The notes under the pieces were generated by a model. That model was not told where the DNA came from. It saw only the letters and a program-made list of their open reading frames with translations, and did no database searches. A program made the position numbers and the translations under genes. A stretch of 48,585 nucleotides of DNA from Tissierellia bacterium (lineage in GTDB: Bacteria > Bacillota > Clostridia > Tissierellales > Tepidimicrobiaceae): positions 1-48,585 of the forward strand of contig JAAZMG010000095.1 of the NCBI GenBank assembly GCA_012798935.1. Reading direction: 5' to 3'. Below are positions 5,209-19,727 of this stretch, piece by piece. Numbering within the stretch: the first letter of the stretch is position 1; every line of letters starts with the position of its first letter.

Positions 5209-5237
5209 TTGACTAATTTAGAAAAATATAATACAAT
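5209..5237 (+). promoter_or_regulatory. sigma-A type promoter of recA
   Basis: TTGACT (5209..5214), 17-nt spacer, TACAAT (5232..5237). Confidence 0.6.
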
Positions 5238-5244
5238 CTAAGTT

Positions 5245-5258
5245 AGAACTTGTGTTCG
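5245..5258. promoter_or_regulatory. LexA (SOS/Cheo) box upstream of recA
   Basis: AGAACTTGTGTTCG is a perfect GAAC-N4-GTTC palindrome, 8 nt downstream of the -10 element. Confidence 0.85.
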
Positions 5259-5298: not shown

Positions 5299-6348
5299 AT
5301 GGCCGATTTGAAAGAAAAAGAAAGAGCACTAGAAATAGCTATAGGTCAAATTGAAAAACAGTTTGGTAAAGGATCCATAATGAGATTAGGCGATACAAAA
5401 ATTCAAGGTATTGAAGTTATACCAACAGGTTCCTTGGATTTAGATATTGCCTTAGGTATTGGAGGCTTACCAAGAGGAAGAGTAATAGAGATATTTGGCC
5501 CGGAATCATCAGGCAAAACTACTGTTGCTCTTCATGTAATTGCTGAAGCACAAAAACGTAAGGGCATAGCAGCTTTTATCGATGCAGAACATGCCTTAGA
5601 TCCTGGATATGCGAAAAAGTTGGGAGTAGATATTGAAAATCTTATTATTTCTCAACCAGATACTGGAGAAGAGGGATTAGAAATTGCTGAAGCTTTAGTA
5701 AGAAGCGGGGCAGTTGATATTGTGGTTGTAGACTCGGTTGCTGCACTAGTGCCAAGAGCAGAAATAGAAGGTGAAATGGGTGATAGCCATGTTGGATTAC
5801 AAGCAAGATTAATGTCTCAAGCTTTAAGAAAACTAGCAGGTGCAATAAATAAATCTAATACAACTGTAATTTTTATAAATCAATTAAGAGAAAAGGTTGG
5901 AATAATGTTTGGTAATCCTGAAACAACAACTGGTGGAAGAGCATTAAAATTTTACTCTAGTGTACGATTAGATGTAAGAAGAATTGAATCCATTAAGCAA
6001 GGGGATAATGTCATAGGTAACAGGACTAGAGTGAGGGTTGTTAAAAACAAAGTAGCCCCTCCTTTTAAACAAGCAGAATTTGATATTATGTATGGTCTTG
6101 GCATATCGAAAGAAGGTAATGTTTTAGATGCTGGAGTTACTGCAAATATAGTTAACAAATCGGGCTCTTGGTATAGTTATGGAGAGCATAGACTTGGACA
6201 AGGTAGGGAAAATGCTAAAGATTTTCTAAGGGATAACCCTGAAATCACATTGGAAATTGAAACAAAAATAAGGGAAAACTTTAATCTTAGTCCAAAAAAA
6301 GAAGATTCAAATGACGATAAAGAAAAAACTATAAAAAACAAAAACTAA
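5299..6348 (+). CDS. recA: Recombinase RecA
   Basis: 349 aa, near-universal RecA sequence with Walker [19 protein letters not shown] and L2 loop region. Confidence 0.98.
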
Positions 6349-6395: not shown

Positions 6396-7382
6396 TTGAG
6401 ATTGCTTTTTTTAACTGATACTCATATAAGGGGAACAACCCCTAAAAATAGAATGGACAATTTACCTGAAACTTTGGAAAACAAATTTAAGGAAATAGGA
6501 AAATTTGTTGAAAATTATAATATAGACTTTGTACTACATGGTGGAGATTTGTTTGATAGACCAGATATATCCGTTTCTATTGTAGGTAATTTTGCCCCTA
6601 TATTAAACAATATTAAAGTTCCTATATATATTGTCTGCGGTAATCATGATATATATGGACATAATCCAGATACCATAAACAGAACTATGCTTGGACTATT
6701 AAATTCCTTAAATGTAGTAAGAATAATTAATAAAGGTGATCTCATATATTTAAATAAAAATGGTATTAAAGTTCAACTAACTGGCCAACCCTATACATAT
6801 AATATTGATAGTGAATTAAATAGGTCTAGCTATATTATAGATAGACCTTCAGAGGATGTAGATTATTCTATTCATATGGTTCATGGAATGCTTCTAAACA
6901 AGCCTTTTATTAAAGGGATACCTTATACTCTAATAGACGATATTAAAGATACTAAAGCTGATATTACGTTATCAGGCCACTATCATACTGGGTTTGGGAT
7001 AATCAATACTAACGGTAAGTATTTTATAAATCCAGGTAGTCTTATAAGGGTTACCAATAGCTTACTAGAAATAGATAGAATACCAAAAGTAGTATTAATA
7101 GAATTAGGTAAAACTATTAATATTGAACTTATAGAGTTAAAGACTGCTAAAGAGGGAAAGGAAGTATTAAATAGACAAGAAATTGAAAATCACATATTTA
7201 AAAGTGAAAGGTTATTTGAATTTAAACGCTCAATAGATAGTTCTGTAAACTTTGAAAAATTAGAGATAAATGAAATTTTAATGGAAGTTTCTAATGCAGA
7301 AGGTGTGTCACAAGAAGTAAAGGAAGAGGCTCTTAAAAGAATAGCTCTTTCCCAAATGAAGGATTTAGGAGATGAGTTATAA
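6396..7382 (+). CDS. Mre11/SbcD-like metallophosphoesterase (putative DNA exonuclease subunit)
   Basis: TTG start 9 nt after AAGGAG. Ordered calcineurin-like/Mre11 motifs: LTDTH (DxH), HGGDLFD (GDxxD), CGNHD, MVHG (H), SGHYH (GHxH). 328 aa. Confidence 0.8.
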   Translation: MRLLFLTDTHIRGTTPKNRMDNLPETLENKFKEIGKFVENYNIDFVLHGGDLFDRPDISVSIVGNFAPILNNIKVPIYIVCGNHDIYGHNPDTINRTMLGLLNSLNVVRIINKGDLIYLNKNGIKVQLTGQPYTYNIDSELNRSSYIIDRPSEDVDYSIHMVHGMLLNKPFIKGIPYTLIDDIKDTKADITLSGHYHTGFGIINTNGKYFINPGSLIRVTNSLLEIDRIPKVVLIELGKTINIELIELKTAKEGKEVLNRQEIENHIFKSERLFEFKRSIDSSVNFEKLEINEILMEVSNAEGVSQEVKEEALKRIALSQMKDLGDEL

Positions 7383-7383
7383 T

Positions 7384-8826
7384 ATGAAATATATCAAAAA
7401 AGTAATTTTAGAAAACTTTCAATCCCACAAATATACAGAAATTGAATTCGACCAATATTTAAATGTTATTGTAGGACCATCCGATCATGGTAAAACTGCA
7501 ATTATAAGAGCCTTAAAATGGGCCTTGTTTAATGAACCTTCTGGAGATTTTTTTATTAGAGAAGGAGAAAAAGAATGCAGTGTAACAGTTATATTTAGTG
7601 ATAATACGAAAGTTAAAAGATCCAGGAGTAAAAGTAAAAACGCCTATTATTTATATGATAAAAAAGGAAAAGAAATGATATTTGAAGGTTTTGGTACCAC
7701 AGTACCTCAAGAAATTATAAATAAAACCTCTATGAGAAAAATAGAATTAGATAGTAGTCAATCTAATTCTATAAATATTAGTGAACAATTAGAAGGACCT
7801 TTTTTGCTTTCAGAAAAGAATGCAACAAGAGCTAATGCAATTGGTAGATTAGTTGGAGTTCATATAGTAGATGACGCTTTAAAAGATACATTAAAGGATA
7901 TTAGAAATTTAAATATGAAGAAAAAAAGCTATGAGGATGTTTTAAAAAAATTAGAAAAAGATTTAATAGAATATGACTATTTAGAAGATCTAGTGAAAAA
8001 AGTTCAACAAATAGAAAAATTAAAACATTATATTTATAATAGTCAATTGAAATTAAATAAATTAAGTGAAATATTAACAGATTTAAATAAACTAGAGAAA
8101 AATATTAGATTAGTGGAAGAATATTTAGATAGACTAGAGAATCTATATAAAGTGATAAATATTGAAAAAAATTTGAATGAAAAGATTCGTATTTATAACT
8201 ATATTAGCAACAAATATAGCAGGCTAGATAATATTAAAATTCAAAAAAAATACAATTCTAATTTACTTAATTCCCTTAAAGAAACTAACAGGACAGAAGA
8301 AATTATTGATAAGATAAATTCGTACTATGATAAAATAGTTAGTTTGAATAAAATCAATAAAAAATATATGTATGTCCACCATAATATTTTAAAAAATAAA
8401 AGAATCTATTTTAAATTAAAAAATATTAGTAATGCGGAAAAAAGTATTAAATTAGGTGAGAGAAAATATTTAAGGCTTGTAGAGTTGTTAAATTTAAATT
8501 ACAAACTAGATTGTACAAACAAAAGCCTTTCTATTGGTACAATTTATATTGACAAACTATCAAACTTAGATCTAATTTCAAAAACACAAAATACATTGAA
8601 AGAAAAAAATAAAGCATTGAAAGTTATAATGGATTATAAAAACAAATATGATAAAATTATGATTAGAAAGCTAAATATAGAAAAAAACTTGACTGAAATA
8701 AAAATAGATATAAAAGAACAGTTAAAACAATATAAGTTTATATTAACTAAAATAGAAGTATGCCCTTTATGTTTTAGCAGTATAGATGGAGTAAAAATAG
8801 ATGAAATAGTCAATAACTATAAATAG
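7384..8826 (+). CDS. Rad50/SbcC-like ATPase, N-terminal half only (Walker A lobe + coiled coil + CxxC hook)
   Basis: ATG 7384 gives MKYIKKVILENFQSH..., a typical SMC/Rad50 N-terminus; the in-frame ATG 7372 abuts the AGGAG. Walker A GPSDHGKTA, about 300 heptad-rich K/E/L/N residues, CPLC at 8761..8772 only 17 residues before the stop. No Walker B or signature motif. Confidence 0.7.
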   Translation: MKYIKKVILENFQSHKYTEIEFDQYLNVIVGPSDHGKTAIIRALKWALFNEPSGDFFIREGEKECSVTVIFSDNTKVKRSRSKSKNAYYLYDKKGKEMIFEGFGTTVPQEIINKTSMRKIELDSSQSNSINISEQLEGPFLLSEKNATRANAIGRLVGVHIVDDALKDTLKDIRNLNMKKKSYEDVLKKLEKDLIEYDYLEDLVKKVQQIEKLKHYIYNSQLKLNKLSEILTDLNKLEKNIRLVEEYLDRLENLYKVINIEKNLNEKIRIYNYISNKYSRLDNIKIQKKYNSNLLNSLKETNRTEEIIDKINSYYDKIVSLNKINKKYMYVHHNILKNKRIYFKLKNISNAEKSIKLGERKYLRLVELLNLNYKLDCTNKSLSIGTIYIDKLSNLDLISKTQNTLKEKNKALKVIMDYKNKYDKIMIRKLNIEKNLTEIKIDIKEQLKQYKFILTKIEVCPLCFSSIDGVKIDEIVNNYK

Positions 8827-8839
8827 GAGGAAGAAATTT

Positions 8840-9088
8840 ATGGATTATGAAAAAGAACTTAATGCTTTAAGAGATAATCTTGAAAAGGCAAAAAGCTTAA
8901 AATATAAAGCTGAAGCAAGATTAGAGCAGCTTAATAATCAACAACAAGAAATAATCAAAGAATTAAAAGATTTAGGAGTAAACCCAGAAGATTTGGAAGA
9001 GGAAATCAAAAAGTTAAAATCAGAAATAGACAAACTATTTGAAGAAGCTAATACCTTGCTACCAAAAGATATTTTAGAAAAGAAGTGA
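8840..9088 (+). CDS. Small coiled-coil-like protein (82 aa), function unknown
   Basis: AGGAGG 9 nt upstream of ATG. Highly charged heptad-like sequence (AEARLEQLNNQQQEIIKELKDL...EEEIKKLKSEIDKLFEE). No catalytic motif. Confidence 0.6.
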   Translation: MDYEKELNALRDNLEKAKSLKYKAEARLEQLNNQQQEIIKELKDLGVNPEDLEEEIKKLKSEIDKLFEEANTLLPKDILEKK

Positions 9089-9092
9089 TATA

Positions 9093-9749
9093 ATGATTAA
9101 CAATTACGAAGAATTGGATAATTATTTATCCAAAATCAATTCTTATATTTCCAAAGAACAAGGCAAAAAAGAAAAAATATTAGAACAAATTGATGAAAAT
9201 AAGGAATTAATAAAAAACATTCAGTTAGAATCTAACCTTATAGAAAAGGTAAGCTTACTTCTGCAAAAAACTTCTGAATTCGCAAGAAACCAAGCAAAAA
9301 AACAGATTGAATCTTTGGTAACTAATTGCTTACAGTATATATTTGAAAATAGTATTGAATTTGAAATTGAAATTGAGGAACTATATGGTAAACCAAATGC
9401 AGAATTTTATGTTACCACAAAAATAGATGATACAATAATTAAAACCAAGCCTGAACAATCTCGGGGTGGAGGGGTTGTGGATATAATATCTCTAGCACTA
9501 CGTATAGCTTTTCTCCAAGTCCATAAACCCAAAATAGAAGGGCCTCTTATTTTAGATGAACCGGCTAAACATGTAAGTGAAGATTATATATTTAATGTTG
9601 CAGATTTTTTAAAAAGAACATCAGAGATGTTTGAAAGACAAATTATTATGGTCACCCATAATAATCACCTTTCATCTATTGGTACAAAAGCATATAAAAT
9701 TCATATGAAAGGAACAGAAAGTCATCTAGAAAAAATAACACCTTATTAA
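9093..9749 (+). CDS. Rad50/SbcC-like ATPase, C-terminal half only (signature + Walker B lobe)
   Basis: 218 aa. The first ~100 aa are heptad-rich, followed by signature-like SRGGG, Walker B LILDEP and H-loop-like VTHN. No Walker A. Confidence 0.7.
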   Translation: MINNYEELDNYLSKINSYISKEQGKKEKILEQIDENKELIKNIQLESNLIEKVSLLLQKTSEFARNQAKKQIESLVTNCLQYIFENSIEFEIEIEELYGKPNAEFYVTTKIDDTIIKTKPEQSRGGGVVDIISLALRIAFLQVHKPKIEGPLILDEPAKHVSEDYIFNVADFLKRTSEMFERQIIMVTHNNHLSSIGTKAYKIHMKGTESHLEKITPY

Positions 9750-9754
9750 TCTTC

Positions 9755-9783
9755 TTGACATATTTGGCTAAAAGTAATAAAAT
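9755..9783 (+). promoter_or_regulatory. sigma-A type promoter-like sequence upstream of rny
   Basis: TTGACA (9755..9760), 17-nt spacer, TAAAAT (9778..9783). Confidence 0.5.
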
Positions 9784-9826
9784 GAAATCGTACCTAGCTA
9801 TACAAAATTATATGTGTAGACTCTAT

Positions 9827-9858
9827 AAGCCGAGACTACTCGGTTTATATTTTTATTC
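9827..9858 (+). terminator. Intrinsic-terminator-like hairpin in the gap before rny
   Basis: AAGCCGAG-ACTA-CTCGGTTT (8 bp including one G-U) followed by ATATTTTTATT. Lies 78 nt after the stop of the preceding gene and about 40 nt downstream of the promoter-like element. Confidence 0.55.
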
Positions 9859-9925
9859 AATGTTTGAACTAAAAGAGTATGTGGTATGAAACTTGAAAAC
9901 TAAATAGAATAGGAGGTGCATCGTT

Positions 9926-11455
9926 ATTGAAGTTGTTTATGTAATTGTAAGTGCTGTTGCAGGAATTGTAATTGGTTTTTATATAAGAAAAACCATAGGT
10001 GAAGGAAAAATTAATAGTGCCGAGGAGTTATCAAGGCGAATTATAGAAGATGCAAATAGGGATGCTGAAACACATAAAAAAGAGCTCCTGCTAGAAGCAA
10101 AAGAAGAGATTCACCAAATAAGAATTGAAAATGAAAAGGAGAACAGAGAGAGAAGGGCCGAAATTCAAAAACTGGAAAGACGTATAATGCATAAAGAGGA
10201 AGCTATTGATAGAAAGAGTGACTCTCTTGAAAGAAAAGAAGAAGCTATTAATAAAAGGTCTAAAAAGTTAGACGAGAAGGAAAATCTCATTGATGAATTA
10301 TATAATAAACAAGTTGAAGAATTAGAAAGGCTATCAGGTTTAACCTCTGATGAAGCAAAAGAGATATTATTAAATGACATTAAAAAAGAAATAGCACATG
10401 AGTCAGCTATAATGATAAAAGAAATGGAAAATAAAGCAAGAGAAGAAGCAGAGAAAAAAGCAAAAGAAGTTATATCCTGTGCAATTCAAAAATGTGCTGC
10501 TGATCATGTTGCTGAATCTACTGTAACAGTTGTCGCCTTACCAAACGATGAAATGAAAGGCAGAATAATAGGTAGGGAAGGCAGAAATATTAGAACCCTT
10601 GAAACTTTGACGGGTATTGATTTAATAATAGACGATACCCCAGAAGCAGTAGTATTGTCTGGTTTTGATCCTATAAGAAGGGAAGTTGCAAGAATTGCTC
10701 TTGAAAAATTAATAATAGATGGAAGAATCCATCCAGCAAGAATTGAAGAAATGGTAGAAAAAGCTAAGAAAGAAGTAGATAATGTTATCAGAAAAGAAGG
10801 GGAACAAGCAGCTTTTGAAACTGGAATTCATGGTCTACATTCAGAGTTAATAAAACTACTGGGTAGATTGAAATATAGAACAAGCTATGGGCAAAATGTG
10901 CTTAGACATTCTATTGAAGTGGCACATCTTGCAGGAATTATGGCTGCTGAATTAGGTACTGATGTAAAAGTAGCTAAAAGAGCCGGTCTTCTACATGATA
11001 TAGGTAAAGCTGTAGACCATGAGGTAGAAGGTCCTCATGTGGATATTGGTGTTGATTTAGCTAGAAGATATAAAGAATCAAAAGAAGTTCTTCATGCAAT
11101 TGCGGCCCACCATGGGGATATAGAGCCTGAAACAGTGGAGGCAGTGCTAGTACAAGCAGCTGATGCAATATCCGCAGCAAGACCAGGTGCACGAAGAGAG
11201 ACTTTAGAAGCTTATATTAAAAGATTAGAAAAACTAGAGGAAATTGCTAATTCTTTTGAAGGTATAGAAAAATCCTATGCAGTACAAGCAGGTCGCGAAT
11301 TAAGAATTATGGTAAAACCAGAAAATGTTAGGGATGATGAAATAATTCATACTGCTAGGGAAATTGTTAAAAAAATAGAAGCTGAGCTAGACTATCCTGG
11401 TCAAATAAAGGTAAATGTTATTAGAGAAACCCGTGCTATCGAGTATGCAAAATAA
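9926..11455 (+). CDS. rny: Ribonuclease Y (start codon non-canonical, probably ATT 9926)
   Basis: KH domain [12 protein letters not shown] and HD domain LLHDIGK. The track ORF begins at ATG 10187, but the 87 in-frame codons upstream encode the conserved TM helix ([21 protein letters not shown]) and coiled coil. AGGAGG (9911..9916) lies 9 nt before ATT 9926. 509 aa, as expected for RNase Y. Confidence 0.88.
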
Positions 11456-11611: not shown

Positions 11612-11872
11612 ATGGATATATTAAAAGTATCAGCAAAATCAAGTCCAAATTCTGTAGCAGGAGCACTAGCCGGAGTTTTAAGAGAAAAAGGCAATGCGGA
11701 AATCCAAGCAATTGGAGCAGGTGCTTTAAATCAAGCAGTTAAGGCAGTAGCTATAGCACGAGGTTTTGTTGCACCTAGTGGAATCGATCTTATTTGTATA
11801 CCAGCTTTTACTGACATCGAAATTGATGGTGAAGAAAGGACAGCTATCAAATTGATTGTTGAACCAAGATAA
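11612..11872 (+). CDS. spoVS: Stage V sporulation protein S (copy 1)
   Basis: 86 aa, MDILKVSAKSSPNSVAGALAG...IKLIVEPR, unmistakable SpoVS family sequence. GAGGGGG RBS. Confidence 0.95.
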   Translation: MDILKVSAKSSPNSVAGALAGVLREKGNAEIQAIGAGALNQAVKAVAIARGFVAPSGIDLICIPAFTDIEIDGEERTAIKLIVEPR

Positions 11873-11891
11873 TCTTAAGGGGGATGTTTTA

Positions 11892-12152
11892 ATGGATGTA
11901 TTAAAAGTAGCAGCAAAGTCAAGTCCAAATTCAGTAGCAGGGGCACTAGCCGGAGTTTTAAGAGAAAAAGGCAGTGCAGAATTACAAGCAATTGGAGCAG
12001 GTGCTCTAAATCAAGCAGTTAAGGCAGTAGCTATAGCGCGGGGTTTTGTTGCACCTAGTGGAATCGATCTTATTTGTATACCAGCTTTTACTGACATCGA
12101 AATTGATGGTGAAGAAAGAACGGCAATTAAATTAATTGTTGAACCAAGATAA
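11892..12152 (+). CDS. spoVS: Stage V sporulation protein S (copy 2)
   Basis: 86 aa from ATG 11892 (RBS AAGGGGG). The track start 11856 is a spurious extension. Differs from copy 1 at 4 residues (I3V, S7A, N28S, I31L). Confidence 0.93.
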   Translation: MDVLKVAAKSSPNSVAGALAGVLREKGSAELQAIGAGALNQAVKAVAIARGFVAPSGIDLICIPAFTDIEIDGEERTAIKLIVEPR

Positions 12153-15987: not shown

Positions 15988-16023
15988 ATATTAGTCACAA
16001 AATATCTATTTTGTGACTAATAT
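15988..16023. promoter_or_regulatory. Perfect 17-bp inverted repeat 30 nt upstream of the recombinase start (operator-like)
   Basis: ATATTAGTCACAAAATA-TC-TATTTTGTGACTAATAT. Not followed by a T tract. Confidence 0.4.
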
Positions 16024-16052
16024 ACTCAGTTATATAGAAAAGAGGAATAGAA

Positions 16053-17030
16053 ATGCATGATATACCATTAATACTTGAAGACTACTTAAATTATATGGAA
16101 ACTATTAAAGGGGTATCTCCTAATACCACAAAAGAATATTTCTTTGACTTGCGTACATTCTTTAGATTTATTAAACTTCGATATAAACTTGTAGATAAAA
16201 ATACTCCTTTTGAAGAAATTAAGATTGATGATATTGACATTAAGTTAATTAACAAAATTAATTTGCAAGATTTACACGCCTTTATATCCTATGCAGATAA
16301 AAATAGAGATAATGGAAATTCTGCAAAATCAAGAAAAGTAGCAAGTTTAAGATCATTTTTCAACTACCTCTATACTAAAGTTAATTTAATTTCTAAAAAT
16401 CCTGCAGGCAACCTAGAATCCCCTAAAACTAGCGCTAGGCAACCTATATATTTAACTTTGGAGGAATGTGATAAATTATTAAACACTATATTAAAAAATA
16501 AAAATAAGATATTTAGAAAACGTGATTATGCTATAGTTATGTTATTTTTAAATTGTGGTTTAAGATTATCAGAATTGTCTAGTATTGATATAAATAAAAT
16601 AAAAAGCGATACCTTAACCGTAGTTGGAAAAGGAAATAAGGAAAGAACTATTTATTTAAACCAATCCTGTATCAATGCAATAAATGATTATATTGCAGTA
16701 AGACCTAAGGATGCTTTGGATAATGAAGCTTTATTTTTAAGTATGAGAAAACAGCGAATGAGTAATAGGGCTATCCAACACATGATAGATAAATATCTTG
16801 GACAAGCCGGATTCGATATCTCTATTTATTCTACCCATAAGCTTAGACATACTGCTGCTACTTTAATGTACAAGCATGGTAATGTAGATATAAGAGCTTT
16901 ACAAGAGATACTTGGTCATGAAAGTGTATCAACAACCCAGATATATACTCATATTGATGATGAAAGATTAAGAGAAGCTGTTAAAAGTAATCCTTTAGGG
17001 AATATAAAACCTGAAGAAAGAAAAGAGTAG
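16053..17030 (+). CDS. Tyrosine site-specific recombinase, XerC/XerD family
   Basis: 325 aa. N-terminal SAM-like core-binding domain, then catalytic residues in context: GLRLSEL (R), HKLRHTAAT (HxxR), LGHESVSTTQIYTH (H...Y). Confidence 0.85.
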   Translation: MHDIPLILEDYLNYMETIKGVSPNTTKEYFFDLRTFFRFIKLRYKLVDKNTPFEEIKIDDIDIKLINKINLQDLHAFISYADKNRDNGNSAKSRKVASLRSFFNYLYTKVNLISKNPAGNLESPKTSARQPIYLTLEECDKLLNTILKNKNKIFRKRDYAIVMLFLNCGLRLSELSSIDINKIKSDTLTVVGKGNKERTIYLNQSCINAINDYIAVRPKDALDNEALFLSMRKQRMSNRAIQHMIDKYLGQAGFDISIYSTHKLRHTAATLMYKHGNVDIRALQEILGHESVSTTQIYTHIDDERLREAVKSNPLGNIKPEERKE

Positions 17031-17116
17031 ATAGAAAATAAAATAATATAGCTGCCTACTCTATAAAATATAAGCAAAATAATATACTTTCAAAATAATA
17101 TACTTTCATAGATAAT

Positions 17117-17163
17117 AAAAAAAGCCTAAAGGAATTTACTAGTAAATTCCTTTAGGCTTTTTT
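17117..17163. terminator. Bidirectional terminator between the recombinase and the LysM gene
   Basis: A7-GCCTAAAGGAATTTAC-TA-GTAAATTCCTTTAGGC-T6. Confidence 0.85.
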
Positions 17164-17166
17164 CTT

Positions 17167-17487
17167 TTATTTAGAGTTGTATTTGATAGGTATTTTTATT
17201 AGATCCCCAGGATAAATATTTGCGCTTTCCATGTTGTTAAATTGTATTATTTCAAATACCATTTTTCTTACATCATAATCCTCCGGCATATTGTTTATTG
17301 CAATATTCCATAAAGTATCTCCTCGTACTACTTTCACTTTTACATAATTTCCCTCACCCTCATATGTAGAACTATAAACCTTGTTATCTTTAACAAATAA
17401 CAAAACTATAAACATAGCCATAGTGAATACTAATAATAAAAATGATATAAATTTTCTTTTGTTTGCTATTTTATATTTCTTTTTCAT
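17167..17487 (-). CDS. LysM-domain membrane protein, YneA-like SOS cell-division inhibitor candidate
   Basis: 106 aa. N-terminal TM (FISFLLLVFTMAMFIVLLFV) and C-terminal LysM (VVRGDTLWNIA...YPGDLIKIP). Divergent from lexA, with LexA boxes in its promoter. Confidence 0.7.
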   Translation of the reverse strand: MKKKYKIANKRKFISFLLLVFTMAMFIVLLFVKDNKVYSSTYEGEGNYVKVKVVRGDTLWNIAINNMPEDYDVRKMVFEIIQFNNMESANIYPGDLIKIPIKYNSK

Positions 17488-17499
17488 AATACCACCTCT

Positions 17500-17526
17500 C
17501 GTACATAAGTTCTAAACGTCTGTTCT
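17500..17526. promoter_or_regulatory. Two abutting LexA-box-like sites downstream of the yneA-like promoter
   Basis: Read on the - strand: AGAACAGACGTTTA and AGAACTTATGTACG (GAAC-N4-GTTT / GTAC). Confidence 0.6.
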
Positions 17527-17534
17527 GTAATTAT

Positions 17535-17563
17535 ATTATACGCAAACACCCGTTCTTTGTCAA
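17535..17563 (-). promoter_or_regulatory. Consensus sigma-A promoter of the yneA-like gene
   Basis: On the - strand: TTGACA, 17 nt (AAGAACGGGTGTTTGCG), TATAAT. Confidence 0.65.
17543..17556. promoter_or_regulatory. LexA-box-like site inside the yneA-like promoter spacer
   Basis: On the - strand: AGAACGGGTGTTTG (GAAC-N4-GTTT). Confidence 0.6.
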
Positions 17564-17579
17564 TGGTTATTTTGAAAAA

Positions 17580-17593
17580 AGAACTTTTGTTTG
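17580..17593. promoter_or_regulatory. LexA-box-like site overlapping the lexA -35
   Basis: AGAACTTTTGTTTG on the + strand. Overlaps the TTGATT -35. Confidence 0.65.
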
Positions 17594-17619
17594 ATTCTTT
17601 AATATATCTATGATATAAT
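17591..17619 (+). promoter_or_regulatory. sigma-A type promoter of lexA
   Basis: TTGATT (17591..17596), 17 nt, TATAAT (17614..17619). Confidence 0.6.
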
Positions 17620-17771
17620 TAGTAATAATCTTTAAACTATACCCTATCATTAAAAAGTAAGCTAAGTATTAGATACATATAAACAAACATTTAGAATAAT
17701 AAGTATGAAAAACTATGGATATTAATTATGTAAAGTAAATTTCTATAGATATATTATGGGAGGTGTTTTAA

Positions 17772-18389
17772 ATGTACGAAGACTTAACCCAAAAACAAAT
17801 TGAAATTTTATATTATATTAAGAATCAAGTGCAAAAACAAGGCTATCCACCGTCTGTAAGAGAAATTTGTAAAGGTGTTAATTTAAAGTCAACTTCTACT
17901 GTGCATAATCACTTGGAAAAATTAGAAATGAAAGGCTATATTAGAAAAGATCCTACTAAACCAAGAGCTATCGAAATTTTAGATAAGGATGAAAACTCTT
18001 TATTTGCACCTAAAAAAACTGTTGATATACCTATTATTGGCAAGGTTACTGCTGGTCAACCAATTCTAGCAGTAGAACATATTGAAGATACATACCCAGT
18101 TCCTATAGATATGGCTGAACGGGGCCCTCTATTCATATTAAAAGTTCAAGGTGATAGTATGATAAATGCGGGAATTTTAAATGATGATTATGTTCTTGTA
18201 AAACAGCAAAATCAAGCTGTAAATGGAGATATTGTAGTGGCATTACTAGAAGATGAAGCTACCATAAAGAGGTTTTTTAAGGAAAAAGACCATATACGTT
18301 TACAACCTGAAAATGAATCTATGTCACCAATACTGACTAAGAATGTAATGGTTCTCGGAAAAGTAATTGGATTGTATAGAAGAATATAG
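17772..18389 (+). CDS. lexA: LexA repressor
   Basis: 205 aa. N-terminal winged HTH (GYPPSVREI), cleavage-site region, S24 peptidase domain with [11 protein letters not shown] (Ser) and ATIKRF (Lys). Confidence 0.97.
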
Positions 18390-18407
18390 CTTTGTCTATT
18401 AATTAAT

Positions 18408-18440
18408 AAAAAGCTAACCATTTTATTGGGTTAGCTTTTT
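18408..18440. terminator. Bidirectional terminator at the convergent lexA / ynbB-like junction
   Basis: AAAAAGCTAACC, 9-nt loop, GGTTAGCTTTTT. The loop contains the stop codon of the - strand gene. Confidence 0.8.
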
Positions 18441-19727
18441 ATTATCTATTAAATTATTAATATATAAATTATTTAAAGATTTCATTACACCTAATTTGCA
18501 ATGCTCATAGGTTAAACCACCTTGATAATAGGCAAAATAAGGCTCCCTCATTGGTCCATCAGCACTTAACTCTATAGAAGAACCATCTATAAAACCTCCT
18601 GCTGCCATAATAACCTTATCTTCATAGCCTGGCATATCCCATGGAATAGGCGTTACATAGGAGTCTACTACAGATGCATTTTGAATCCCCTTGCAAAATT
18701 CAATAACCCTATCTGGCGAATTAAATTTTACAGCTTGAATAATATCACTTCTAGTATCATGGATTTCAGGTACAATATCAAATCCTAACTCCTTATAAAC
18801 TATTCCAACTAATAAAGCTCCTTTCACAGCTTCTGAAACTATATGAGGTGCCAAATAAAACCCTTGTAATGTAGTTCGTGTGGTTCCGAAGGTCAATCCA
18901 CAATCTTTGCCTAATCCTGGTGCTGTACTTCTGTTAGCAACCTGTTCCACTAAATTAGATTTTCCTACTATATACCCTCCTGCTAATGCTAATCCTCCTC
19001 CAGGATTTTTAATCAATGATCCTGCCGTTATATCAGCACCTATATCCGTTGGTTCTCTTTTTTCTAAAAATTCACCATAACAGTTATCCACCATAATAAT
19101 AACATCTTTATTTTTACTTTTAATTTTTTCAATAACTTCTTCCATTTCATCTATAGTTATGGCTTTCCTATCGCTATAACCTGTAGATCTTTGTATAAGT
19201 AAGACTTTAGTATTATTAGATATATTTTTTAATACTTTCTCTACATCCATTTTCCCATTTTTTAAAGCTATTTCTTTATAATTTATACCATATTCTAGTA
19301 AAGTACCATTTTGGTTTCCCTTTACGCCGATTATTTTTTGCAATGTATCATATGGACTTCCAGTTATGGATATAAGCTCATCATTTGGCCTTAATAGTCC
19401 AGATAAAGTTAATGTAATAGCATGGGTACCCGATGCTATTGTTGGCCTAACTAGAGCATCTTCAGTATTAAAAACCATAGCATAAATTTCTTCTACCTTA
19501 TCCCTACCTATATCTCCATATCCATATCCAGTAGTCCAACTAAAATCCGTAGAACTAAGTCTAGCTTCTTGCATACTTTTAATTACCTTATATTGATTAT
19601 ATTCTTTTATCTCATCAATTCCGTTAAATTTTTTATTTATTAATTTTTCTTTTGAATTTACAAAATTAATAACTTCTTCTTTAATTTTAAATTGTTTACA
19701 TAATATATTTATTGTCCCCTTTTCCAT
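18423..19727 (-). CDS. YnbB-like PLP enzyme (methionine gamma-lyase / aluminium-resistance family)
   Basis: 434 aa with a Cys/Met-metabolism PLP-enzyme-like fold sequence. Its position downstream of hfq matches the Firmicute ynbB-type gene as I recall it. Confidence 0.75.
   Translation of the reverse strand: MEKGTINILCKQFKIKEEVINFVNSKEKLINKKFNGIDEIKEYNQYKVIKSMQEARLSSTDFSWTTGYGYGDIGRDKVEEIYAMVFNTEDALVRPTIASGTHAITLTLSGLLRPNDELISITGSPYDTLQKIIGVKGNQNGTLLEYGINYKEIALKNGKMDVEKVLKNISNNTKVLLIQRSTGYSDRKAITIDEMEEVIEKIKSKNKDVIIMVDNCYGEFLEKREPTDIGADITAGSLIKNPGGGLALAGGYIVGKSNLVEQVANRSTAPGLGKDCGLTFGTTRTTLQGFYLAPHIVSEAVKGALLVGIVYKELGFDIVPEIHDTRSDIIQAVKFNSPDRVIEFCKGIQNASVVDSYVTPIPWDMPGYEDKVIMAAGGFIDGSSIELSADGPMREPYFAYYQGGLTYEHCKLGVMKSLNNLYINNLIDNKKLTQ

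Follow-up and report, generated by a model that had tools for sequence, protein, structure and literature searches.

A probable Mre11-Rad50-type nuclease complex with an ATPase divided among three polypeptides, encoded between recA and rny in a Tissierellia bacterium

We analyzed a 48,585-nucleotide (nt) stretch of DNA from a Tissierellia bacterium (GenBank assembly GCA_012798935.1, contig JAAZMG010000095.1), hereafter called the window, in which four open reading frames (ORFs), labelled g1 to g4, lie within positions 6396–9749 of the + strand between recA and rny. This module probably encodes a single Mre11-Rad50-type nuclease complex whose Rad50/SbcC ATPase is built from three polypeptides. 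The genes and the zinc-hook motif of g2 are located as follows (lengths in amino acids, aa).

6396–7382, + strand: g1, 328 aa with a TTG start, Mre11/SbcD-like metallophosphoesterase nuclease
7384–8826, + strand: g2, 480 aa, N-terminal head lobe of Rad50/SbcC, helical arm and zinc-hook motif
8761–8772, + strand: CPLC zinc-hook motif (C460–C463 of g2), 17 residues before the end of g2
8840–9088, + strand: g3, 82 aa, helix-loop(GVNPED)-helix protein
9093–9749, + strand: g4, 218 aa, N-terminal helix and C-terminal head lobe of Rad50/SbcC

The intergenic gaps g1/g2, g2/g3 and g3/g4 measure 1, 13 and 4 nt, and g2, g3 and g4 each occupy a different reading frame and each have a start codon and a Shine-Dalgarno-like sequence of their own. 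An alternative g2 start, the ATG at 7372, would give a product of 484 aa, yet the methionine encoded at 7384 is the invariant M1 among orthologues. The four genes are probably translationally coupled. These ORF calls agree with a preliminary description of this DNA, which had reported same-strand genes with this spacing, the ATPase ORFs in three frames, and an 82-aa coiled-coil-like protein with its own ribosome-binding sequence in the position of g3.

The g1 protein matched the Pfam family Metallophos (E 6.7e-16) and PHROG 100, annotated as ‘SbcD-like’ (5e-15), and its best sequence matches in the PDB were archaeal Mre11 proteins. Its metal-binding motifs, D8/H10, GGDLFD (49–54), GNHD (82–85), H160/H163 and GHYH (194–197), were invariant in 64 orthologues, the residues D51, N83, H84, H195 and H197 included. 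An AlphaFold2 (AF2) model computed with these orthologues, with a predicted local distance difference test score (pLDDT) of 82 and a predicted template modelling score (pTM) of 0.78, displayed a phosphoesterase core and, C-terminal to it, three helices. When the model was compared with the PDB by Foldseek, the top 50 matches were all Mre11/SbcD (E 1e-12 to 7e-10), with query-normalised TM scores of about 0.49–0.63 over 267–380 aligned columns, and the predicted fold is thus that of Mre11 and not of a generic phosphoesterase. About 78 residues extend past the core, with helices predicted at 260–283, 291–299 and 306–322, and this tail is compatible with the Rad50-binding tail of such nucleases.

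The two half-heads of the ATPase were found on separate chains. The g2 protein matched Pfam AAA_23 (E 2.3e-15) and PHROG 16465, annotated as ‘exonuclease’ (6e-62), and the Rad50 model NF003034 aligned with g2 residues 4–480 over its positions 3–458 of 878, a span that corresponds to the N-terminal half as far as the hook. This chain carries the Walker A motif GPSDHGKT at residues 31–38 (nt 7474–7497) and an invariant Q-loop glutamine, Q135. The AF2 model of g2 (90 orthologues; pLDDT 79) contains a head lobe that matches Rad50, the best Foldseek match being Methanocaldococcus jannaschii Rad50 (3auy, 3.6e-6). The signature motif, Walker B, D-loop and H-loop reside on g4, which aligned with the C-terminal end of Rad50 models (positions 650–869 of 872; 4e-8) and matched PHROG 15167, annotated as ‘ATPase’ (6e-60). 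The g4 motifs are SRGGG at 123–127 (nt 9459–9473), which was aligned to the SGGE motif of Rad50, the Walker B motif LILDEP at 152–157 (nt 9546–9563) and the H-loop VTHN at 187–190 (nt 9651–9662); D155, E156 and H189 were invariant across 102 diverse homologues. The best PDB sequence matches of both g2 and g4 were archaeal Rad50 proteins, and in the crystal structures of two-chain Rad50 heads (1f2t, 1ii8 and 3qkr) g2 matched the A chains and g4 the B chains. These profile searches, which the preliminary description had proposed, together with the motifs, uphold its full, ordered Mre11/SbcD motif set for g1, a nuclease-family member by sequence profile and by predicted fold alike, and its N-terminal lobe with Walker A for g2, whose chain ends 17 residues past CPLC. 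Its account of g4 held for the C-terminal lobe with SRGGG, LILDEP and VTHN but not for the helix ahead of that lobe, which spans about 55–65 residues and not about 100.

The two lobes were also found joined in nature. Two metagenomic proteins, P0364 (368 aa) and P0340, carry the N-terminal lobe of g2 and the C-terminal lobe of g4 in one chain, as matched by profile hidden Markov models (HMMs) of g2 (positions 2–169, 5e-54) and g4 (positions 43–212, 3.5e-46). Because these natural, armless single-chain fusions provide Rosetta-stone evidence, we conclude that the lobes of g2 and g4 form one ATP-binding cassette (ABC) head, as had been proposed when the locus was first described. P0364 and P0340 themselves are without arm or hook, have about 15 residues between the lobes and represent a RecF-sized offshoot.

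The CPLC motif near the end of g2 has the form of a Rad50/SbcC zinc hook, as originally suggested, and may lie at the apex of the arm and bind zinc; the same motif occurs in E. coli SbcC. Among the 90 g2 orthologues C460, P461 and C463 were invariant, with CPxC conservation of at least 98%. The Pfam model Rad50_zn_hook (PF04423) matched 24 of these orthologues (best E 6e-6) and missed the g2 of the window at E 0.1. Of the 83 distinct loci tabulated, 82 have a CxxC motif 5–25 residues from the C-terminus of g2; the exception, locus L066, has a 138-residue tail past the hook that contains a g3-like motif, i.e., g3 is fused to g2.

The g3 protein matched PHROG 18563, whose function is listed as ‘unknown’ (2e-10), and returned only coiled-coil noise matches in Pfam and NCBIfam. 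Homologues of g3 were present in the phages phBC6A51, vB_BboS-125 and 0305phi8-36 and in the majority of loci, viral as well as chromosomal, in each case immediately ahead of g4, and divergent short-arm forms of the module likewise have a 78–84-aa helix-loop-helix ORF directly 5' of g4. The evolutionary rate of g3 is a third of that of the g2 arm, which suggests that g3 contacts conserved surfaces, such as the hook end, g1 or the head, and is not mere filler. We conclude that g3 is a universal, highly constrained subunit of the split ATPase.

We then asked how far the split itself is conserved. The order cinA-recA-g1-g2-g3-g4-rny-spoVS was kept in all 20 Tissierellia-type genomes fetched, among which the lowest identities were 36% for g2, 55% for g4 and 54% for g3. 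The best 120 g2 homologues, with identities down to 44%, were nearly all 479–490 aa long (two shorter ones are partial sequences), and the best 120 g4 homologues measured about 217–243 aa, two fragments excepted. A search with g4 of 1.84 billion cluster representatives (clusters at 50% identity) returned 2919 clusters at E ≤ 1e-3, of which 1284 reached E ≤ 1e-10; the best 150 were nearly all 205–260 aa. The survey of recA-rny junctions suggested earlier thus recovered both the module and its split in every genome fetched, and no uninterrupted sbcC-like ORF was found in close relatives, the homologues listed having the g2 size of about 480 aa or the g4 size of about 218 aa. The ratios of nonsynonymous to synonymous substitution rates (dN/dS) against four relatives were 0.06–0.10 for g1, 0.14–0.21 for g2, 0.04–0.07 for g3, 0.05–0.09 for g4 and 0.06–0.08 for recA. 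All four genes are under strong purifying selection, and g1, g3 and g4 are constrained like recA.

The arm of g2 contains an internal repeat.

7999–8703, + strand: five tandem 47-residue repeats (g2 residues 206–440), recognized by autocorrelation and a boundary motif

The repeats start at residues 206, 253, 300, 347 and 394 and share the conserved boundary motif L-K-[ND]-[IL]-[DN]-x-[VI]-E. Profile autocorrelation over g2 residues 173–456 peaked at lags 47 and 94 (z = 2.9 and 2.4), and in single-sequence autocorrelation lag 47 or 94 (±1) was one of the two top-ranked lags for 17 of 22 diverged members, among them phage proteins, while neither arm of E. coli SbcC, analyzed as a control, gave a signal at these lags. 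The AF2 model of g2 shows a helical arm broken at residues 197, 300 and 346–347, then a short loop at the hook and a final helix (469–479), and the helix breaks and pLDDT dips coincide with repeat boundaries. Across the family the hook lies at position ~292, 340, 363, 414, 460 or 507 (range 292–515), in steps of roughly one repeat; while the hook position varies in this way, g3 stays at 77–92 aa and g4 at 205–236 aa. The Peptoniphilus copy (locus L099) has four repeats and that of phage phBC6A51 has six. The repeat array, the constraint on g3 and the sharing of the family with phages had not been part of the preliminary description.

The returning arm is far shorter than the outgoing one, as had been pointed out earlier. 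The outgoing arm of g2 has about 285 helical residues, and the return chain available, i.e., 17 residues of g2, 82 of g3 and about 55–65 of g4, amounts to at most ~165, about half of the outgoing helix. Because the return chains are about half as long and do not scale with the g2 arm, the arm is not a continuous antiparallel two-chain coiled coil, and the single fold-back polypeptide with a matched-length antiparallel coiled coil by which Rad50 is recognized is absent here. Gaps placed by MAFFT in g2 arms of varied length were uninformative on topology, because both arm ends are anchored by conserved sequence; the arrangements considered below were derived from helix boundaries and pLDDT. In one of them, g2 would contain a Z-shaped three-helix segment (helices 198–299, 301–345 and 348–456), whose net rise of 166 residues is close to the 164 available in trans. 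Alternatively, two g2 arms might be paired in parallel and clamped by zinc, or more than one copy of g3 might be present per arm. A repeat of 47 residues would span roughly half of the superhelical turn of a coiled coil (about 7 nm). It is possible, though we hold this tentatively, that the arm is a one-chain modular rod of 47-residue repeats, evolving in length by whole repeats without a change of partner and closed by the C-terminal zinc hook, with g3 as a dedicated adaptor or latch that links the hook end to the g4 helix near the head. Were this so, the rod would consist either of a self-contained three-helix segment of g2 or of parallel, zinc-clamped g2 arms, and in both cases non-covalent ring joints could let DNA pass; it would represent a new SMC-like DNA clamp architecture and a natural experiment on the importance of arm continuity. 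Our confidence in how the g2 arm is built is low.

Relatives of the module occur on phages, plasmids and other chromosomes. A tblastn search with g4 detected the Bacillus phages vB_BboS-125, phBC6A51 and 0305phi8-36 at 38–46% identity, as well as 14 Bacillota plasmids, several of which resemble phage-plasmids. In phBC6A51, BC1852 corresponds to g2 (with CPLC 10 residues from its end), BC1854 to g3, BC1855 to g4 and BC1857 to g1 (38% identity over the full length); in vB_BboS-125, gp32, gp34 and gp35 correspond to g2, g3 and g4; and in 0305phi8-36, gp8 is a g1::g2 fusion, gp7 is g3 and gp5 is g4. The g1::g2 fusion also occurs in loci L025, L027 and L066 and in the Clostridium baratii plasmid pCBJ. 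A scan of IMG/VR seeded with a 12-sequence alignment identified 68 loci, of which nearly all complete ones had the order g2-(0 to several inserted genes)-g3-g4-g1 as judged by our own HMMs; the same viral scan with the single g4 protein as query gave no match. The surroundings of the module in phages included a Holliday-junction resolvase, helicases, a primase, and an MCM protein or DnaE. The locus in the window and its relatives share the features that define the split family: a g2 ending 5–25 aa past CxxC, a g3 of 77–92 aa directly upstream of g4, a g4 of about 205–236 aa, a nuclease of about 327 aa that is either encoded close by or part of a g2 fusion, and an arm period of 47 residues.

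In the phage and IMG/VR loci (L022–L092), the interval between g2 and g3 often holds inserts such as a C5 cytosine methylase or a DnaE-type polymerase, and Pfam searches of these inserts gave sub-threshold matches to AP2 and HNH_3. Such contents suggest that the post-hook junction is an insertion hot spot, and we conjecture that Rad50 was split through mobile or homing endonuclease genes.

Among chromosomes, a metagenome-assembled genome of the Thermoanaerobacterales has the module after recA (with a recA-g1 gap of 1 nt), followed by rny-ymdB-spoVS, and in Peptoniphilus the module likewise follows recA. In Tepidibacter and Tumebacillus it lies elsewhere in the chromosome, without phage genes nearby, and in Desulfovirgula thermocuniculi (locus L095, 1516–7675) it directly follows nurA-herA, in the order NurA-HerA-g1-g2-g3-g4. 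The Desulfovirgula cluster constitutes an archaeal-style end-resection gene set in a Bacillota bacterium. A rough neighbour-joining (NJ) tree of g4, made without support values, placed the chromosomal copies as one clade nested among viral clades, which is suggestive of a phage-to-host relation. The architecture appears to be old and shared with Bacillota phages, and the direction of transfer would have been from phage to host. Public names for g4-type proteins include ‘ParA’, ‘chromosome segregation ATPase’, ‘OLD family protein’, ‘RecN’ and ‘hypothetical’, and these names are likely misleading.

In the textbook view, Rad50/SbcC has an ABC head with both lobes on a single polypeptide, which extends to a zinc hook and returns, and T4 gp46 is likewise a single chain. 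The module shares with canonical SbcCD/Mre11-Rad50 (E. coli, Thermotoga maritima, archaea) the ABC head motifs, a CP[LVT]C hook motif and a metallophosphoesterase partner of the Mre11 fold, but differs in using three polypeptides instead of one, in a chain that ends 5–25 residues past the hook, in a trans return arm of about half the outgoing length, and in the 47-residue repeats, which are absent from E. coli SbcC; compared with canonical SbcD/Mre11, g1 is short. The phage SbcCD-like nucleases of the T4 gp46/gp47 type that belong to PHROGs 16465, 18563, 15167 and 100 are true homologues of g1–g4 in phage recombination modules, whereas the window has a fixed chromosomal locus with the order g1-g2-g3-g4, not g2-g3-g4-g1, and without inserted genes. 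Engineered two-chain Rad50 heads (1f2t/1f2u, 1ii8, 1us8 and 3qkr) demonstrate that separate N- and C-terminal fragments assemble into a working head; those are truncations without arms or hook, whereas here the split is natural, the arm and hook remain on one chain, and a third subunit is present. The best NCBIfam matches were archaeal Rad50, and the Desulfovirgula module recalls the archaeal herA-mre11-rad50-nurA operon; unlike that operon, the window has no nurA or herA and is linked to recA. The Lamassu system (LmuA/LmuB/LmuC) shares the layout of an ATPase, a small helical subunit and a nuclease, with weak LmuB profile matches, but LmuB is one chain, and the module has no Lamassu effector, occupies a core syntenic position and has Rad50 and Mre11 as its closest relatives. 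Literature searches on a split Rad50/SbcC found no paper describing the split. The nearest was that of Yoshida et al. 2011 (PMC3175470), in which gp8 of 0305phi8-36 is listed as an Mre11/Rad50 fusion, one P-loop segment of which ‘was not observed’; unlike in such fusions, g1 and g2 are unfused in the window. By homology, the segment missing from gp8 is the separate downstream gene gp5 (g4), with g3 (gp7) between them.

Several features around the module bear on its expression and are listed below together with recA.

5209–5237, + strand: promoter-like site of recA, TTGACT-17-TACAAT
5246–5257, + strand: perfect LexA/Cheo box GAACTTGTGTTC (GAAC-N4-GTTC), downstream of the promoter-like site
5299–6348, + strand: recA, identified by translation, 70–90% identity to recA at the same position in loci L001–L020
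6347–6378, + strand: hairpin ACCTCC...GGAGGT followed by TTATTT, between recA and g1
9755–9849, + strand: downstream boundary of the module ahead of rny, with promoter-like TTGACA-17-TAAAAT (9755–9783) and a hairpin with a T-run (9824–9849)

Of 18 related loci, 16 carry a LexA box ahead of recA, at about -54. A hairpin directly followed by the ribosome-binding site of g1 was present at all 18 readable junctions, with recA-g1 gaps of 39–69 nt, and is likely a leaky terminator or attenuator. Because the gap in the window is only 47 nt, and filled by the hairpin, there is no room for a promoter of g1, and g1–g4 are probably transcribed at a reduced level by read-through from the LexA-controlled recA promoter.

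From the gene anatomy, the motifs, the conservation of the split, the distribution, the selection on the genes and the fold of g1, we infer how an Mre11-Rad50-type complex of g1–g4 would be assembled, in what stoichiometry, on which substrates and under what regulation. In this model, g2 would supply the N-terminal half-head, the outgoing arm and the zinc hook, and g4 the short incoming helix and the C-terminal half-head, with g3 as a small helical subunit placed between the hook and g4 by gene order and by one natural fusion. The g1 protein would act as an Mn-dependent nuclease, probably bound through its C-terminal helices to the base of the g2/g4 coiled coil. If the complex works like SbcCD and Mre11-Rad50, ATP binding would bring two composite heads together, two CPLC hooks would share one zinc ion, and the complex would clamp DNA ends, hairpins or blocked ends for cutting by g1. 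The cut products would feed RecA-dependent recombination, and the levels of g1–g4 would rise with the SOS response through read-through from the recA promoter. A role in recombination repair is favored because of the fixed core position behind LexA-controlled recA, the adjacency to nurA-herA in Desulfovirgula, and the location of phage copies in replication and recombination modules; the heteromeric SbcCD/Mre11-Rad50 variant that the preliminary description had offered as one of two alternatives fits these contexts.

Its other alternative, an SMC-like nuclease defence module of the Lamassu or Wadjet style (or of a new kind) that acts against phage or plasmid DNA and stands beside recA by chance, is unlikely. 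Its layout does resemble LmuB/LmuC/LmuA, its relatives are carried by phages and phage-like plasmids, which are also vehicles of defence genes, and PADLOC gave weak matches to LmuB (g2 7.7e-15, g4 4.8e-8) and mad3 (g4 1.7e-8). These PADLOC matches, however, were limited to generic parts of the ABC head (partial matches of the LmuB, GajA or PtuA type, with weak coiled-coil matches for g3), while the closest profiles and structures were Rad50/SbcC and Mre11, and no LmuA-type effector or JetA/B/D partner was found in the window. Moreover, the genes hold a fixed housekeeping position in 20 of 20 genomes, not a variable island, under constraint about as strong as that on recA, they are linked to nurA-herA in one lineage, and the phage copies sit in the early replication and recombination block, like genes of the T4 gp46/47 type. 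In another reading, the module would be a captured phage replication and recombination module, or a prophage remnant, without host function, and its adjacency to recA an inherited accident; homologues of all four parts do occur in Bacillus phages as well as in some 68 IMG/VR contigs, and in the rough NJ tree viral clades surround that of the chromosomal copies. We consider this quite improbable, as no other phage genes flank the module, the independent chromosomal settings in Tepidibacter, Tumebacillus and Desulfovirgula likewise lack phage genes, and the junction has been kept despite a g2 identity of 36%, with dN/dS of 0.04–0.2, which points to host selection.

A third explanation would trace the split to a single sbcC, either decayed by frameshifts or recoded into one chain by ribosomal frameshifting or hopping, since the three ORFs are colinear with Rad50, in three frames, with gaps of only 13 and 4 nt. 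The chance of this is close to negligible: the same three ORFs with their own starts recur in every relative examined, and purifying selection acts on each piece. Frameshift decay was rejected on these grounds, and recoding is excluded as a general mechanism because up to about 3 kb of other genes separate g2 from g3/g4 in phages. Some observations do weigh against an Mre11-Rad50-type complex as well. The scores of g2 and g4 were far below the curated NCBIfam cut-offs for Rad50/SbcC (49.9 and 31.5 bits versus 1000), and those of g1 were below the cut-offs of TIGR00619 sbcd (27.6 bits versus 77.65) and TIGR00583 mre11 (21.5 versus 434.6); the g1 model of 328 aa shows no clear alpha/beta capping domain; and the return chain reaches about half of the outgoing helix, as described above. 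In addition, no LexA box was found upstream of the modules located away from recA (Tepidibacter, Tumebacillus and Desulfovirgula), and SOS control is therefore not a family-wide property.

How the arm and hook of Rad50 transmit the ATP state and admit DNA is still debated. Here, a large natural family (at least 1284 g4 clusters at E ≤ 1e-10), represented on Bacillota chromosomes, in phages and on phage-like plasmids, has the chain cut right after the hook and again within the returning arm, with a small third subunit constrained like RecA, and so offers separable parts for probing the contributions of arm continuity, arm length and the hook. The assignment corrects the annotation of hundreds of genes named ‘AAA family ATPase’, ‘ATPase’, ‘ParA’, ‘OLD family protein’ or ‘hypothetical’, and accounts for the ‘missing’ ATPase segment of the 0305phi8-36 fusion protein reported in 2011. 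In Tissierellia the module is likely an SOS-linked enzyme for double-strand-break processing, and it is a candidate case of a phage recombination module that became fixed in a host chromosome.

Further observations concern the remainder of the window. The gene lexA (17772–18389; LexA_DNA_bind and Peptidase_S24 domains) is divergent from a 106-aa, yneA-like LysM ORF (17167–17487), and four boxes with one mismatch to GAAC-N4-GTTC lie between the two at 17501–17592. The sign of the GC skew flips at about 17–18 kb (region ~16000–19000) alongside a switch in gene orientation, which may mark a replication terminus or merely a strand switch; a tyrosine recombinase (16053–17030) adjoins the orientation switch. 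Two tandem copies of spoVS are present at 11612–12152, as is also the case in L001 and L006, while most other relatives have one. Finally, rny (RNase Y) has no ATG, GTG or TTG start, and its frame opens at an ATT codon (9926–9928), 9 nt past a GGAGG sequence (region 9912–9928); at least 12 related loci (among L001–L019) retain the string GGAGGTG-N7-ATT-GA, suggesting that rny starts at a conserved non-canonical ATT codon.

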